The notes under the pieces were generated by a model, which saw only the letters and a program-made list of their open reading frames with translations, was not told where the DNA came from and searched no databases. Below are positions 8,055-12,725 of a stretch of DNA of 12,725 nt, in pieces (position 1 is the stretch's first letter; each line of letters begins with the position of its first letter). This stretch comes from a virus (Duplodnaviria; Heunggongvirae; Uroviricota; Caudoviricetes), in IMG/VR virus record IMGVR_UViG_2859827302_000006; one strand, 5' to 3'. Both the position numbers and the translations under genes were made by a program.

Positions 8055-8350
8055 TTCTTGCCCCTGAATCCGTTAACCATGGTTTTCAGCTTCTGGATGT
8101 TTGCCCGTGCCCTGGCGTTGCTGGTGGGCACGTTATGCGGCGCGGTCTGTACCAGAGAAAAATCACGCCGGAACTGATAAACAGGCATCACGCAATCATA
8201 TTCGTAACCTTCACGGCGGTAGGTTACACGCCGTTCTTCCACGCCCTTAATCATTACCGTGCCGCCGTACTGGTCGCGGTAAATATCACCGCGCGTAAAT
8301 TTAGGGTGAGTGTTGCCACTGGCAGTTAAGCCAGAATATTTAAGTTTCAT
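8051..8350 (-). CDS. Hypothetical protein (99 aa)
   Basis: GGAGAA ribosome-binding site before the ATG at 8350; stop overlaps the Rep start (ATGA). Confidence 0.55.
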   Translation of the reverse strand: MKLKYSGLTASGNTHPKFTRGDIYRDQYGGTVMIKGVEERRVTYRREGYEYDCVMPVYQFRRDFSLVQTAPHNVPTSNARARANIQKLKTMVNGFRGKK

Positions 8351-8589: not shown

Positions 8590-9172
8590 GGCTTACATCC
8601 TCAGGAAATTTTCTTCTGTAACGCGCCTCTGCCACATATTCCGCATAATCGGCGGCGATATTCAGTACATCAAGCCCCGTTGATTTATATTCTCTCGTGG
8701 AAAGTAAGAAAAAAGCCGCTCTAATAAGTTCTGGCATTGACGAAAGCGCATCAGCCGCATCATCAGGAACGCCGGAAAATTCCTGTTTCAGGGAATTAAA
8801 ACGATCATCACGCATGTTTACCCCCTGAATGACCTGATAACCGCAACTGGTCAGCAACTCGATAAATTCCGGCAGTGTGCCGAAACAGCAATCATCACGC
8901 AGCCGTTCGCAGGATACCTCGACGCCGTTTTCGTAGTGACTCACCATACATCCGGTAAAATGCAGATCATCATCGTGATGGCTCGTTGACGGCTTAATCA
9001 GTCGCGCACGTTCCGCCAGTTCCAGCAATGCTTCAACGCTTCCGGCAATTGCACCATCCGGCAGGTGATAATTACGCACTATGCGCCCGTTCTCCACATT
9101 GACCAGCAACTGCCCGGTAAATTTCTCATCAAACTGAATGCTGTTAAGGTCAGAAATTGACAGATTATGCAT
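8582..9172 (-). CDS. Hypothetical protein (196 aa; start taken at the internal ATG 9172 rather than the ORF-track start 9190)
   Basis: AGGAGG sits 6 nt upstream of the ATG at 9172; protein-like composition, no recognisable motif. Confidence 0.65.
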   Translation of the reverse strand: MHNLSISDLNSIQFDEKFTGQLLVNVENGRIVRNYHLPDGAIAGSVEALLELAERARLIKPSTSHHDDDLHFTGCMVSHYENGVEVSCERLRDDCCFGTLPEFIELLTSCGYQVIQGVNMRDDRFNSLKQEFSGVPDDAADALSSMPELIRAAFFLLSTREYKSTGLDVLNIAADYAEYVAEARYRRKFPEDVSHA

Positions 9173-9386
9173 GGTGCACCTCCTGCACATCAGCCATGAT
9201 AATTTTTCCGGCCTTATCCAGTGCCTGATCGGCTTTTAGCTGCACAAATGCTAAATGGAAGATGCATTCTGATTCTCTGGCTGCGTGTTTATGCGCCCTG
9301 TCAGCAATAACAGAAATATCAATAAGCGCGTGCATCAGCGTAGTGAGCGCGGCGGCGGCTGCGTCCGGTGTGGTTTTATTGCACAT
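9165..9386 (-). CDS. Hypothetical small protein (73 aa; start at internal ATG 9386)
   Basis: GGAGGGG ribosome-binding site 4-5 nt upstream of the ATG at 9386; Ala-rich, helical-looking; short overlaps with both neighbours. Confidence 0.5.
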   Translation of the reverse strand: MCNKTTPDAAAAALTTLMHALIDISVIADRAHKHAARESECIFHLAFVQLKADQALDKAGKIIMADVQEVHHA

Positions 9387-9606
9387 GTACCCCTCCGCAT
9401 TTTTTTTCGTTAGAAATAAGCGTTCTTCTTTCCTGTTCATCGCTCAGGAATACGCAGACCTCACCGCTAAGGCGTTTAAGTAAGCCGATGATTGCCCCTG
9501 ATTCGCTGTCGGTCATCATGCTAGGGTAATCCTCTGCCAGTGCGCAAATAACTTCGATTTGGTGGGCGCGTTCTGCTGCCTGTTGTAGTGTGATTTCCTG
9601 GCTCAT
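9376..9606 (-). CDS. Hypothetical small protein (76 aa)
   Basis: ATG at 9606 overlaps the preceding stop (ATGA); GGGGG upstream. Confidence 0.5.
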   Translation of the reverse strand: MSQEITLQQAAERAHQIEVICALAEDYPSMMTDSESGAIIGLLKRLSGEVCVFLSDEQERRTLISNEKKCGGVHVQ

Positions 9607-9803
9607 AAGCCTACCCCCTGACGAATACGGGCAGCAAATACCATCACGCAGCCAGCCGGAGATTGCTGGCGTGCTTCCTGTTCGCTGGTGGCCTCAATGG
9701 TAATCACGCGCGGTTGTGCCGTGCTCAGGGCGATAAAACGCCAGATGTATTTATTCAGGTTGTGCGAGTCCCGCCCTTTCGGGTGTGTGGTATGATTTCT
9801 CAT
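9603..9803 (-). CDS. Hypothetical small protein (66 aa), first gene of the main leftward operon; it is the C-terminal part of the 428-codon stop-free frame
   Basis: In-frame ATG at 9803 with GAGG ribosome-binding site, about 90 nt downstream of the predicted minus-strand promoter. Confidence 0.4.
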   Translation of the reverse strand: MRNHTTHPKGRDSHNLNKYIWRFIALSTAQPRVITIEATSEQEARQQSPAGCVMVFAARIRQGVGL

Positions 9804-9900
9804 AGCTACCTCGATACTGTTGCTATCGTTGGTGGTTAGAAGCCCCGTTACTGCTCCTACAGTGCGGGGTTTCGTCGTTTCTGTGCCTTTCATCAATAAG

Positions 9901-9981
9901 GTGTAAGACACAATGTAAAACAATGGTGTCTTACACGTCAACCCTTCAAAATATTTTTTTTTCGTGTATATTGTCTTACAC
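9901..9981. promoter_or_regulatory. Divergent promoter/operator switch between the RHH gene (+) and the main operon (-)
   Basis: Inverted repeat GTGTAAGACAC (9901-9911) / GTGTCTTACAC (9926-9936) plus half-site GTCTTACAC (9973-9981); + promoter TTCAAA (9945-9950)-16 nt-TATATT (9967-9972); minus promoter TTGACG (complement of 9936-9941)-17 nt-TTACAT (complement of 9913-9918). Confidence 0.55.
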
Positions 9982-10002
9982 CAAAAACATGAGGGGTTAA
10001 AC

Positions 10003-10182
10003 ATGGCAACGGGTCCAAAGAATGCAAAATCACAATCTGTAACTGCACGTATTGCCCATGAAATTATTGAAGGCATGGAGAACGTGAAAGAAGAAGGCGA
10101 AAGCACGGGACAGTTTATAAACGCAGCCATGCGCGGCGAAATCAAACGCCGCCAGCGCCGCAAGGCCAAAGAGCAGGAGTAA
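10003..10182 (+). CDS. Ribbon-helix-helix (CopG/Arc/MetJ-like) DNA-binding protein, about 59 aa; candidate repressor of the switch
   Basis: ATG at 10003 with GAGGGG ribosome-binding site; the pattern SVTARIAHEIIEGMENVKEEGESTGQFINAAMRGEIKRR fits a beta-strand plus two helices; the ORF-track start at 9964 (GTG) lies inside the promoter. Confidence 0.7.
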   Translation: MATGPKNAKSQSVTARIAHEIIEGMENVKEEGESTGQFINAAMRGEIKRRQRRKAKEQE

Positions 10183-10224
10183 CCATCACCAGCGCCGTGG
10201 TGTGAGTAACTACGGCGCATTGCT

Positions 10225-10413
10225 ATGCAGGACAACACAATGACCGATAAAGAATTGACCAAAACATTATCACCGGCACGGAAAAGACGGCGCAGAAAGA
10301 TAGAGCATGAATCAGAAAGATTCGCGCCATGTGCTTTTGCCCTTGAGCAATTCCTTAAAGAGTACAGGGAAAAGCGCTCATTGCAGGTATGGCAACGAAC
10401 TGAACCAGACTGA
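10225..10413 (+). CDS. Possible small Arg/Lys-rich protein co-transcribed with the RHH gene (likely start ATG 10240)
   Basis: Weak AGGA ribosome-binding site; basic stretch ARKRRRRK; followed by a + strand terminator. Could instead be untranslated. Confidence 0.35.
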   Translation: MQDNTMTDKELTKTLSPARKRRRRKIEHESERFAPCAFALEQFLKEYREKRSLQVWQRTEPD

Positions 10414-10490
10414 TTGCATTGCCCACCAGCCGCAAATGTGGCATTATTGGCAATGCTCATGCGTTGGGGATAACGTGTAGCTTGTGTCGA

Positions 10491-10520
10491 GGGGCCACCG
10501 TAGCGGGTGGCCTTTGTTTT
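10491..10520 (+). terminator. Rho-independent terminator of the RHH transcription unit
   Basis: GGCCACC-GTAGCG-GGTGGCC (10493-10512) followed by TTTGTTTT; a second weaker hairpin plus T-run lies at about 10613-10646. Confidence 0.6.
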
Positions 10521-10526
10521 GCCCGT

Positions 10527-10889
10527 TATTCGGCAATTGTGGCGCTTCTCCACATGGTTGATATAATCCCACTGCTCAGATTCATTTTTTGCGCAGTAGG
10601 TTAATTGTTCACAAAGGCGCTCCGGCAACGGGGCGCTTTTTGTTTTTATTAGTTTGTAGAAACCTGACTCAGAGATAATGCTCATATTCTGATTGCCGTC
10701 AGGGGTGTAAGTTAAATTTACTCCCTTTTTATCATCAAACATCTGCAACGCTCTGGCGTTAACAATATTGGTTTCACTCCCGCCAGTAAGGCCGGAAATA
10801 ACCGGAATAATTTCGGCAAAATTTTGCAGATTCTGTTTTTCAGGACGAACGAAGCCCCGCCCTTGTTCGGGAGAATATCCAGTATTCAT
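10527..10889 (-). pseudogene. Possible decayed gene with a Bro-N-like antirepressor N-terminus; the frame runs on without a stop to 9603
   Basis: The first 95 or so codons look protein-like and include ISESGFYKLIKTKSAPLPE, reminiscent of the Bro-N motif; downstream the frame is antisense to the RHH operon and rich in C/S/R; weak ribosome-binding site. Confidence 0.3.
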
Positions 10890-10941
10890 GGTTAGATCTC
10901 TGTATTAGTGGATGGGTGGCGGCTGTGTGCCGCCAGCCTGA

Positions 10942-11130
10942 TTAGTGAACTGCCTCGCAGCTGTCCTTCCATGCCAGAACTTCGGATAAAGACCAGCCAA
11001 CGGAACGACCGCCCAGCTTACGCCGTGATGGGAATTGTCCGGCTTTTTCCAGGCGGTACCGACATGAGCGGCTCAGGCCTGTAAGTTGCTGACATTCTTT
11101 TTCACGTATAAAGCGATCTGTGCTTAACAC
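10942..11130 (-). CDS. alpA: AlpA-family (prophage CP4-57 / P4 Vis-like) HTH transcriptional regulator, 62 aa
   Basis: FIREKECQQLTGLSRSCRYRLEKAGQFPSRRKLGGRSVGWSLSEVLAW fits the AlpA/MerR-like HTH pattern; GTG start at 11130 with GGGGGA ribosome-binding site; directly downstream of int. Confidence 0.8.
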   Translation of the reverse strand: MLSTDRFIREKECQQLTGLSRSCRYRLEKAGQFPSRRKLGGRSVGWSLSEVLAWKDSCEAVH

Positions 11131-11164
11131 AATTCCCCCTTTGTTGTTTCTTAAAGAGTCATTG

Positions 11165-11215
11165 GGTGGATTATTGGGTTGGGTTGTGTCGGATTGTGTC
11201 AGGGTGTTTGTGGAA
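11165..11215. repeat. Repeated TTGTGTC / GGGTTG elements upstream of alpA
   Basis: GGGTTGGGTTGTGTCGGATTGTGTCAGGGTGTTTGTGG, with GTTGTGTC at 11183-11190 and ATTGTGTC at 11193-11200. Confidence 0.4.
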
Positions 11216-11404
11216 TGGCAAACACTGGCGGCGGTCGTTTTACAGAAGCAGGGGGAATGAGAATAAAAACTCTTTTAATTCATTATGATGCAAAGGCATA
11301 AAATTTTACTTTTACGCCTTTTTTACATATTTTTAAGAGTGATTCGCCAGTGTATAAAAAAACAGTACACCTATAAAAATCAAATGGTTATTACGATGGC
11401 TGAT

Positions 11405-11470
11405 TTTTAACCCGTTGTTCCATTTTGTTCCTTGTTGTTCGTCGTTGTGTCTCGTTGTTTCACGTTGTCC
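11405..11470. repeat. Six tandem 10-bp-phased GTTGT repeats between the int stop and alpA
   Basis: cccGTTGTTc / cattTTGTTc / cttGTTGTTc / gtcGTTGTGt / ctcGTTGTTt / cacGTTGTCc at 11411-11470, one per helical turn. Confidence 0.5.
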
Positions 11471-11495
11471 GCATCCTGAAAAATCGCAAAAAAAA

Positions 11496-12725
11496 TTATA
11501 TTTCTCTGGCTATTGGCAATGTGGTTACGTTTTCATGTGTTCCCGCCAGTATCCCTAACCGCTCCGTCCACATATCCAGCGCGTCACGTTTCGCATCCAG
11601 ATAACGGGAATGGTTATAGACTCGTTGCATCCCTGGCATCTGATGACCTGTAAGCTGCTCCACGACGTGAGGATCCACGCCTAAATCGTTCAGCATCGTT
11701 GTAAAGGTGCGCCGGATGTCATGCAGTGACCAGTGAGGGTGTTTTAGCCTCCTGTGCGCTAATCTGCCGTACTGCGACACGCTTGTTTCCTGTTTCACTT
11801 CCCCCAGCAATAAGCCCGTGTGCCTGTTCTGCTCCACCAGCTGCGTGACGAACGGCAGTATTGCTTCCGGTATGGGCCGGAATATTGCCACCTTCGTTTT
11901 GCTGTGTTCTTTCGGCACGGTCCAGAGCATTTCGGTAAAATCCCACTCGCTGATCTCCGATAACCTCAGTTCTACCGTCCGGCATCCGAAAACAATCAGG
12001 AGGCGGATTAGTGCGACGTAGTAAGGGGAAAATATTTTTTTGTCCAGTGCCTGCAATAATTCGCCAAGTTCTTTGGTGCTTAAGACACGCTCGCTTATAT
12101 CCGGTTTTTTCCCAACGTCCGCCACACTCATATCATCAAGAACGTTGCTGATTGCATAGCGCCGCCTCCGGCAGAACTTAAGCGCCTGTTTGCACGTCTG
12201 TAGCAAGAATCCGGCAGTAACAGGCGTTCGCTTTGCCACCTGGTCAAAACAGGCCAGCCAGTGCCGTAGCTCGCATTTATCCAGCGGCATAGCACCAATG
12301 TGCTGTATTACGTGATTATTAAGGCGCTTTTTCAGGGCGGCATAATCCACGCGGTTTTCCTTTACGTAAGACTCAAGCCAGTAGGTAAGCGCATCGCCAA
12401 CCGTTACGGGCTTTAACGCTTTCTGTACGGTGTAATTCATCTCATGACGTGGATTTTTCCCCTCAGCAAGCCAAGCGCGACACTGTGCCGCTTTTTCCCT
12501 GGCAGCTTTCAGACTCAGATCAGGATAATTTCCCAGCTTAATCCGTTCCGGTCGTGCTCCCCTTCCCGTTCCGGCCCTGTAGGTGAAATACCAGGTTAAA
12601 AGGCCGCTGGTTGAATGCCTGACGCTCAGGTTTCCACCGTCATTAAGAAAGGCTGTTTTTTGGGCGGGTGTGCCGTTGATTTTCCTTAGCTGTGTATCAC
12701 TCAGTTTGTTAAGTGCTCTGCGCAT
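11496..12725 (-). CDS. int: Tyrosine site-specific integrase, P4-type (409 aa); start codon at the window edge
   Basis: N-terminal arm-binding region with the LNDGGNLSV motif (compare P4 Int LADGGGLYL); C-terminal catalytic signature with R in GCRTVELR, HxxR in LHDIRRTF and the Tyr region GHQMPGMQRVYNHSRYL. Confidence 0.92.
   Translation of the reverse strand: MRRALNKLSDTQLRKINGTPAQKTAFLNDGGNLSVRHSTSGLLTWYFTYRAGTGRGARPERIKLGNYPDLSLKAAREKAAQCRAWLAEGKNPRHEMNYTVQKALKPVTVGDALTYWLESYVKENRVDYAALKKRLNNHVIQHIGAMPLDKCELRHWLACFDQVAKRTPVTAGFLLQTCKQALKFCRRRRYAISNVLDDMSVADVGKKPDISERVLSTKELGELLQALDKKIFSPYYVALIRLLIVFGCRTVELRLSEISEWDFTEMLWTVPKEHSKTKVAIFRPIPEAILPFVTQLVEQNRHTGLLLGEVKQETSVSQYGRLAHRRLKHPHWSLHDIRRTFTTMLNDLGVDPHVVEQLTGHQMPGMQRVYNHSRYLDAKRDALDMWTERLGILAGTHENVTTLPIAREI

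Follow-up and report, generated by a model that had tools for sequence, protein, structure and literature searches.

Why would one reading frame stay free of stop codons for 428 codons while running antisense through a regulatory gene and across its promoters and operators? The question is raised by a 12,725-nt stretch of viral DNA (Caudoviricetes; IMG/VR record IMGVR_UViG_2859827302_000006, hereafter the window), in which a frame of this length is the longest open reading frame (ORF). The original prediction, made from the letters of the window, held that the frame is probably not one gene, and saw in it a decayed Bro-N-like antirepressor gene that had lost its stop or its frame and had become fused, across a genetic switch, to a small gene at the far end. 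Here we report that most of 106 clusters of related loci, anchored on the Icd-like domain alone, have the frame open, and that its last 66 codons are a gene in their own right. We suggest that the frame is likely to be the counterpart, in a phage-inducible chromosomal island (PICI), of the nested eta/kil genes of phage P4, translated from alpA-side transcripts as a guard against premature termination.

Genomic setting of the long frame

Positions 9300–11200 of the window are 94% identical to the EcCICFT073 island, which lies between phoQ and roxA and is annotated with an integrase, AlpA, a primase/helicase, a major capsid protein and a head decoration protein. The region is carried by 1786 E. 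coli genomes. Gram-negative PICIs are recognised here by int, alpA, a "Bro zone", a primase/helicase replication module and capsid-related late genes, all in one orientation and at a fixed chromosomal site. The ORF list of the window agrees with the gene content of CFT073, and the window is a PICI of the EcCICFT073 type. In Gram-negative PICIs, the name Bro zone (Mageeney et al. 2023, PMC10111431) refers to the stretch that separates the integration module from the replication module. The leftward operon around the long frame is laid out as follows.

10942 to 11130, minus strand: alpA, activator gene just upstream of the long frame (Pfam Phage_AlpA, E 3e-18)
9603 to 10889, minus strand: putative Eta-like long frame, 428 codons plus stop, with an ATG start 52 nt past the alpA stop; the same frame is open in relatives
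9603 to 9803, minus strand: nested Icd/Kil-like gene, the last 66 codons of the long frame and in frame with it (NF033153; annotated by PGAP as 66 aa in CFT073)
9376 to 9606, minus strand: next gene of the operon and first of the replication genes, 76 aa, its ATG overlapping the stop of the long frame as ATGA

A hairpin is found at 10915–10938, between alpA and the long frame. Over the same 1287 nt, the remaining five frames carry 14–27 stops, and at such a stop density the chance of a 428-codon stop-free run would be about e^-14 to e^-27. With that many stops in the other frames, the length of the run is beyond what composition allows. In both respects, the length of the frame and the improbability of its arising by chance, the original prediction was right.

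The last 66 codons are a separate gene

The end of the long frame, referred to below as icd, is a real separate gene with its own ribosome-binding site and a folded, constrained product. The NCBIfam profile NF033153 (Icd-like domain) matches residues 381–424 of the long ORF with an E value of 2.9e-18, and a GAGGT Shine-Dalgarno sequence at 9808–9812 ends 4 nt before the internal ATG at 9803. Substitutions between alleles, taken from a pairwise aligner and scored as synonymous fraction and mean BLOSUM for each frame on both strands, are of the coding type over these codons (synonymous fraction 0.36, mean BLOSUM +1.13), compared with synonymous fractions of 0.08–0.10 and negative BLOSUM scores in the other same-strand frames. 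In an AlphaFold model of the long ORF, built on an input alignment of 49 sequences, residues 372–424 are the only confident part (53 residues, pLDDT 62–92), residues 8–371 falling below 50. A search of PDB sequences with the Icd-domain profile gave nothing usable. The gene and its ribosome-binding site had thus been called correctly at the outset. In one island (L066, 2252–3682) the icd stop is lost, and the frame continues into the next gene to give 476 open codons.

Public annotation of this locus is inconsistent in length and uniform in name. The exact 428-aa sequence is present in NCBI as "host cell division inhibitor Icd-like protein" on 64 contigs, just as automated annotation had been expected to call it, and the CFT073 version (c1487, AAN79956.1) is present on 452 contigs, having been entered in the original CFT073 record as hypothetical protein c1487. 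Depending on the genome, the locus is annotated as 66 aa (CFT073 RefSeq), 94 aa (RM8385), about 280 aa (many genomes) or 428–430 aa, and it bears the Icd-like product name at every annotated length. In CFT073, PGAP places three genes under the long frame: the 66-aa "Icd-like" gene on the minus strand, and a YlcI/YnfO gene and a 57-aa hypothetical gene on the plus strand.

The frame is open in most related islands

The same frame is open in CFT073 (428 codons) and in the O103 strain RM8385 (425 codons); about 300 nt of its interior, comprising most of ylcI and the promoter region, is 55–65% identical among the window, CFT073 and RM8385. The protein database also holds many "Icd-like protein" ORFs of about 280 aa from other islands, which run antisense through different alleles of the switch. 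Since called proteins are a biased sample, loci were anchored on the Icd-like domain alone. The survey covered 12 species-representative genomes, 80 IMG/VR contigs, and a second 80 IMG/VR contigs reached via a Klebsiella-type Icd (one of these, L077, was already among the first 80). Clustering at 90% identity over the 600 nt that precede icd gave 48 + 58 = 106 clusters.

In the species-representative genomes the icd frame is open for 227–351 codons from the first ATG in eight genera (E. ruysiae, Cedecea, Rahnella, Enterobacter, Superficieibacter, Rosenbergiella, Intestinirhabdus and Tenebrionibacter), and for 324 codons in the induced element vB_KppS-Ant, with 6–24 stops in the other frames of these genomes. 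At least 150 open codons precede icd in 41 of the 48 clusters of the first set, where the median open run is 276 codons vs 1 and 8 in the other two frames; at least 200 do so in 49 of the 58 clusters of the second. When a fixed span of 200 codons upstream of icd is considered, the icd frame is stop-free in 78 of the 106 cluster representatives, as against 5, 0, 0, 0 and 0 representatives for the five other frames (median stops 13, 13, 10, 4.5 and 10). The long frames of relatives vary from 214 to 536 codons and freely in module content, with lengths that differ by multiples of three, and in many islands the open frame starts at the alpA stop itself or at most 37 nt from it. Four of the exceptions were compared with close open relatives; each has 1-nt indels and looks like a derived frameshift.

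The comparison with homologues which the original prediction had called for was meant to locate a lost stop or a frameshift. Intact AntA and Bro genes do exist in other islands (see below), but a one-off loss does not account for a frame that is open in the relatives. Conserved full-length homologues, which had been named as evidence for a single real protein, were likewise found for the frame and not for a protein sequence or a protein size.

The border between alpA and the long frame takes several forms. In many islands (L020, L027, L029, L037, L045, L051, L088 and others) alpA is in the reading frame of the long ORF, and its own stop is the sole stop between the start of alpA and the stop of icd. 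In L029 and L039 the long ORF has its ATG 9–11 nt past the alpA stop, preceded by a GGGGGA Shine-Dalgarno sequence, a layout that points to translational coupling of the kind seen in P4. Where the bro gene is intact, a clear Rho-independent terminator (CCCCGCA...TGCGGGGTTTTTT) stands between alpA and bro (L030, approximately 1850–1908; L062, upstream of 2364). By way of speculation, AlpA acting by antitermination, an idea that comes from the AlpA of Pseudomonas, would fit a terminator in this place.

Openness is retained where the encoded protein is not

Beneath the long frame, the window contains the following features.

10003 to 10182, plus strand: ylcI, encoding a 59-aa putative ribbon-helix-helix regulator (NF041551, YlcI_YnfO_N, E 5e-18; also called by PGAP)
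10240 to 10413, plus strand: second small gene, 57 aa, arginine-rich, in the same antisense phase (PGAP hypothetical in CFT073 and RM8385)
9900 to 9982, no strand assigned: putative divergent promoter/operator core (consensus matches only)
9941 to 9912, minus strand: icd promoter-like site TTGACG-18-TACATT (consensus match)
9945 to 9972, plus strand: ylcI promoter-like site TTCAAA-16-TATATT (consensus match)
9900–9910, 9926–9936 and 9972–9982: three copies of an operator-like 11-mer, GGTGTAAGACA (repeat search)
10491 to 10521, plus strand: predicted terminator T1 at the end of the ylcI operon, sequence GGGGCCACCGTAGCGGGTGGCCTTTGTTTTG, read antisense as the peptide "GKTKATRYGGPS"
10559 to 10650, plus strand: candidate small RNA (sRNA) of about 77 nt, antisense to codons ~80–105 (-10 box, 13-mer and terminator T2)

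The long frame thus passes antisense through ylcI, the 57-codon ORF, T1, T2 and the divergent promoter/operator region. The anatomy had been described accurately at the outset, with both promoters, the operators and an antisense ribbon-helix-helix gene.

The intergenic stretch between ylcI and icd (~200 nt, AT-rich, with the promoters and operators) lacks any icd-frame stop in 27 of 29 distinct alleles, where a first-order Markov simulation gives an expectation of ~2% open per allele. Its substitutions in that frame have a synonymous fraction of 0.11 and a mean BLOSUM of -0.32, the same as in every other frame on both strands. Over ylcI, the antisense frame is open in 23 of 25 distinct YlcI alleles vs ~27% expected when the YlcI protein is held fixed and synonymous codons are redrawn with E. 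coli usage (Poisson-binomial tail 7e-13); alleles share ancestry and recombine as modules, so P values of this kind overstate independence, and despite this the direction and size of the effect are clear. The ylcI frame itself is conserved more strongly than the long frame over this segment (BLOSUM +1.88 vs +1.02), which indicates that YlcI is the selected protein and the long frame its shadow. As with ylcI in the window, all plausible antisense genes within the open frames share one phase, such that the third codon positions of both strands coincide (58, 24, 12 and 4 cases for four regulator types; 30, 6 and 1 for three second-gene types).

The interior is therefore no conventional protein, having neither a confident AlphaFold structure nor, in its promoter part, amino-acid constraint, and the view that the middle is antisense to other genes is borne out, with the addition that some of it is unconstrained promoter DNA. 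Because the frame stays open and in register while its interior is either unconstrained or an antisense shadow, selection appears to act on openness and not on the encoded protein; that the frame is kept open by selection we regard as very probable. The claim that this is not one gene and has lost a stop or frame is accordingly supported in part for the protein, a patchwork in which the Icd-like end alone is constrained, and not for the frame.

A chimeric antirepressor remnant at the N-terminus

Codons 1–95 had been described as a decayed Bro-N-like domain. This is correct, and the decay goes further than was supposed, since two different pieces are present.

10746 to 10889, minus strand: codons 1–48, AntA/AntB-type antirepressor start and leader remnant (tblastn to intact AntA N-termini)
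10617 to 10745, minus strand: codons 49–91, central fragment of Bro-N with both ends missing (Pfam Bro-N positions 34–85 of 96)

In tblastn, codons 1–48 match the N-termini of intact 278–280-aa AntA genes in three islands (L005, L006 and L016). Intact AntA genes have Pfam AntA matches with E values of 6e-21 and 5e-23, and lie directly after alpA in the Cedecea and Tenebrionibacter islands; ATG 10889 is homologous to the start of such intact antirepressor genes. What the window keeps is the 48-codon leader that precedes the AntA domain (PF08346), and the window ORF has no Pfam AntA match. The Bro-N profile (PF02498) scores 14.2 bits against the whole ORF (E 0.067) and 17.0 bits against residues 1–125 (E 0.009), both under the Pfam gathering cut-off of 25.6 bits, and the matched part has no confident fold. 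For comparison, an intact 192-aa Bro gene follows alpA in other E. coli islands (L030, L094 and L036) and covers Bro-N positions 2–96 of 96 (E 7e-20), and some relatives (P0013, L062) have a complete Bro-N at the N-terminus of the long frame. At the junction "...GFYKLI / KTKSAPLPERL..." of the window copy, the Bro-N piece meets the antisense reading of terminator T2. Codons 1–95 are thus a chimeric, decayed remnant of two antirepressor genes, an AntA-type leader joined to a Bro-N fragment.

Resemblance to eta/kil of P4 and to other systems

The eta frame of P4 runs for 197 codons without a stop, from 2 nt past the end of vis (an alpA homologue) across the immunity region to the start of epsilon; its last 65 codons are kil, and the Icd/Kil-like gene lies at 8168–8365 of P4 (L003). 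Because NF033153 matches residues 144–191 of P4 Eta (E 1.2e-20), at its C-terminus, the nested gene of the window is a Kil homologue in the same position. This homology is established via the NCBIfam profile only: BLASTP against P4 Kil is weak (E 0.005), and a tblastn search of the phage collection with the 66-aa Icd missed P4. Common to both systems are the C-terminal Kil/Icd-like domain as a short gene, nested in frame and in the window equipped with its own ribosome-binding site, and a long ORF that follows alpA/vis, begins upstream of an internal promoter (predicted in the window), crosses the regulatory region and ends at the next gene of the operon.

The P4 experiments (Forti et al. 1999, J Bacteriol 181:5225) are cited here through a passage of PMC10111431. 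According to that passage, a constitutive promoter lies inside eta and its transcripts end early under CI-RNA immunity, Kil is a truncated form with a cell-killing function and Eta the long form, and only the upstream late promoter yields full-length Eta, the translation of which prevents termination and thereby allows read-through.

The interiors of the two frames differ. That of P4 encodes, on the strand of eta itself, the CI immunity RNA together with seqA (matched by Rfam C4 and isrK, which also hit L009); the window has neither. P4 Eta matches Pfam Phage_ASH (E 3.8e-23), unlike the window ORF. The latter is twice as long (428 vs 197 codons) and is laid over an antisense protein-repressor operon (ylcI, the second gene and a terminator) together with a possible antisense sRNA. 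A C4/isrK-type immunity RNA gave no Rfam match, either in 9000–11500 at E up to 1 or in the whole window at the gathering threshold, and P4-style RNA immunity inside the long ORF was rejected on this result.

A second comparison is offered by the immI operon (c4-icd-ant) of phages P1 and P7, from whose icd the name of the NCBIfam Icd-like model derives. There, transcription reaches ant only if icd is translated, and c4 RNA blocks the icd ribosome-binding site, leading to Rho-dependent termination. The likeness to our proposal is that the translation state of a small gene bearing the Icd name decides downstream transcription; P1 and P7 differ in that icd is preceded by no long in-frame ORF, no repressor gene lies antisense to it, and control is by a same-strand processed RNA.

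Nested genes of the eta/kil type are known from P4; the embedding of a protein-repressor operon antisense within such a frame is the new part. Only AlpA, Pri-Rep and Int have been listed as distantly homologous between P4 and PICIs (PMC6092414), and to these the Icd/Kil domain with its eta-like layout would, on sequence grounds, add a second link.

A proposed role for the long frame

By analogy with P4 and from the layout of the operon, we propose the following course of events. In the quiescent island a YlcI-type repressor would shut the internal icd promoter, probably through the GGTGTAAGACA repeats. Induction by a helper phage would raise AlpA, an activator both of the alpA promoter and of EcCICFT073 genes further downstream (PMC6092414), and transcripts from the alpA promoter would then enter the switch region. 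Ribosomes would start at ATG 10889, taken over from an antirepressor gene; by translating ~1.1 kb of otherwise non-coding antisense RNA they would shield the transcript from Rho, possibly also from antisense RNAs, so that transcription could reach icd and the replication genes. The same ribosomes would be delivered to icd and, through the ATGA stop/start overlap, to the coupled genes downstream. The 47-kDa product itself would probably be unimportant except for its C-terminal Icd-like domain. That anti-termination by translation is the reason for the open frame seems to us slightly better than an even proposition.

Besides the shared ancestry of the alleles mentioned above, several points weigh against this proposal. 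We infer both the translation of codons 1–362 and the action of Rho on the transcript from the analogy. The Shine-Dalgarno sequence before ATG 10889 is weak (AGAGA). A Rho-loading signature (C-rich, G-poor) along the sense RNA is weak, confined to modest patches, and is not used here as evidence, and promoter-like matches in the region are no commoner than in shuffled sequence. The analogy with P4 rests on the C-terminal domain and on position, because the CI RNA and seqA interior is absent from the window. The frame is lost in ~15–25% of clusters, which shows it to be dispensable. Finally, in L030-type islands the open frame lies downstream of an intact bro gene and lacks an ATG over ~146 codons.

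Other explanations for the open frame

A first alternative is that the frame is open to allow a long Icd isoform, or the delivery of ribosomes to icd and the translationally coupled genes downstream while the internal promoter is repressed, with no part played by Rho; the unstructured extension could instead tune the toxicity of Icd. The Icd domain is indeed in frame at the end of the long ORF, the downstream genes are tightly coupled to it by the ATGA overlap, and the short cell-killing Kil and long Eta of P4, in the account of PMC10111431, offer a precedent. However, icd has its own strong Shine-Dalgarno sequence and should be translatable from any transcript, and this explanation does not say why more than 1 kb is kept open when a separate short upstream ORF could serve. 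We consider it unlikely, although it survives better than the two that follow, both of which fit the data poorly.

Less probable by some way is a genuine multi-domain "Bro network" protein of ~47 kDa, functional throughout, with the plus-strand genes as true antisense overlapping genes. In annotation pipelines and in the PICI survey of PMC10111431, such ORFs count as Bro-zone proteins assembled from segments that can be swapped. Genes of the Bro zone do resemble the window ORF, as they occupy the same place between int/alpA and the replication genes and are mosaic, with swapped modules and Bro-N or AntA pieces at the N-terminus; the conservation of openness and the complete Bro-N of P0013 and L062 also speak for this explanation. 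Against it, the intergenic part evolves without amino-acid constraint, ylcI is better conserved in its own frame, length and modules vary freely, AlphaFold gives structure at residues 372–424 only, and the N-terminal domains of the window copy are incomplete. Where PMC10111431 sees domain-swapping proteins, much of the "protein" is here the antisense of swapped regulator cassettes, terminators and promoters. The wobble-aligned shadow over ylcI and the second gene is of the kind found in ordinary shadow ORFs, but those stop at gene borders, whereas in many unrelated alleles the long frame carries on across AT-rich promoter DNA, terminators and the joints between genes.

The accidental fusion of the original prediction, a functionless run from a damaged antirepressor-like gene through the switch into icd, is very improbable and largely refuted by the cluster survey: truncated AntA- and Bro-N-type fragments in the first 95 codons, an interior without fold or constraint and the frequent annotation by PGAP of the 66-aa gene only are what it would lead one to expect, but not a frame that is open in most of the independently anchored clusters with diverged interiors and other frames full of stops, lengths that differ by multiples of three, ylcI codons and intergenic DNA that avoid stops far beyond expectation, or the same nested arrangement in P4.

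The embedded switch

Returning to the reading of the long frame as an eta-like frame laid over a repressor operon, the switch itself deserves description. Two of the GGTGTAAGACA copies form an inverted repeat around the icd -10 box, and one lies at -10/+1 of the ylcI promoter-like site, making YlcI and these repeats a candidate PICI repressor and operator; the existence of a repressor in Gram-negative PICIs has been called "unclear" (PMC6092414). Assignment of YlcI to the ribbon-helix-helix class is suggested by the pattern of its sequence. A search of PDB sequences with YlcI gave nothing usable, and a search of the literature for a functional paper on YlcI/YnfO or c1487 found none. A longer form of YlcI, 99–101 aa with an insert of ~40 residues (…ARRQAEGSGENPLVSSLDALAQVEK…), occurs in five islands (L017, L018, L027, L042 and L094), and the antisense long frame is open across this insert too.

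The antisense motif of T1 is kept in relatives. Hairpin arms at 10416–10423 and 10449–10456 lie in the 3' untranslated region that separates the second small gene from T1. The plus-strand segment 10416–10521 is among the best-conserved parts across islands, near-invariant columns falling at codons 84–157 of the long frame, and it may be a processed or 3'UTR-derived RNA element.

The candidate sRNA, on the plus strand, would span 10574–10650 and is marked by a perfect extended -10 box, TGATATAAT, at 10559–10567, an invariant 13-mer at 10598–10610, and terminator T2 at 10613–10650, with a predicted fold of -24.8 kcal/mol (z -3.9). Among 17 variants from other islands the -10 box (TATAAC in one) and the 13-mer, AGGTTAAT(T/C)GTTC, are kept, while the terminators differ by an indel and in both arms of the stem. 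The "conserved peptide motifs" DYIN and CEQLT of the long ORF are simply the antisense reading of this -10 box and 13-mer. The candidate matched no Rfam family, and a second site complementary to its 13-mer was sought within the window, with nothing found beyond chance.

Implications for satellites of Enterobacterales

It is possible, at a little under even chances in our estimation, that the long frame stands for a class of "frame-only" ORFs in Enterobacterales satellites, laid over a whole antisense repressor operon and kept in register as cassettes recombine freely, in which openness is what is selected and ribosome traffic is the signal, the repressor genes being co-adapted through their wobble-aligned phase and through codons that avoid antisense stops. 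If this is true, the single case of P4 eta would become a general design principle, and many database "Icd-like" or "Bro network" proteins of 280–540 aa would largely not be proteins. For annotation, what look like interior "domains" in such ORFs are for the most part regulator cassettes and terminators read antisense. For the biology of these islands, the embedded YlcI-type gene with its operators provides a concrete candidate for a PICI repressor, and the open frame a handle on AlpA-driven transcription as it crosses the switch. More broadly, the locus appears to be a clean natural example of a reading frame whose openness is selected without selection on the protein, with a bearing on how overlapping and antisense genes, and the coupling of transcription to translation, shape the evolution of mobile elements.

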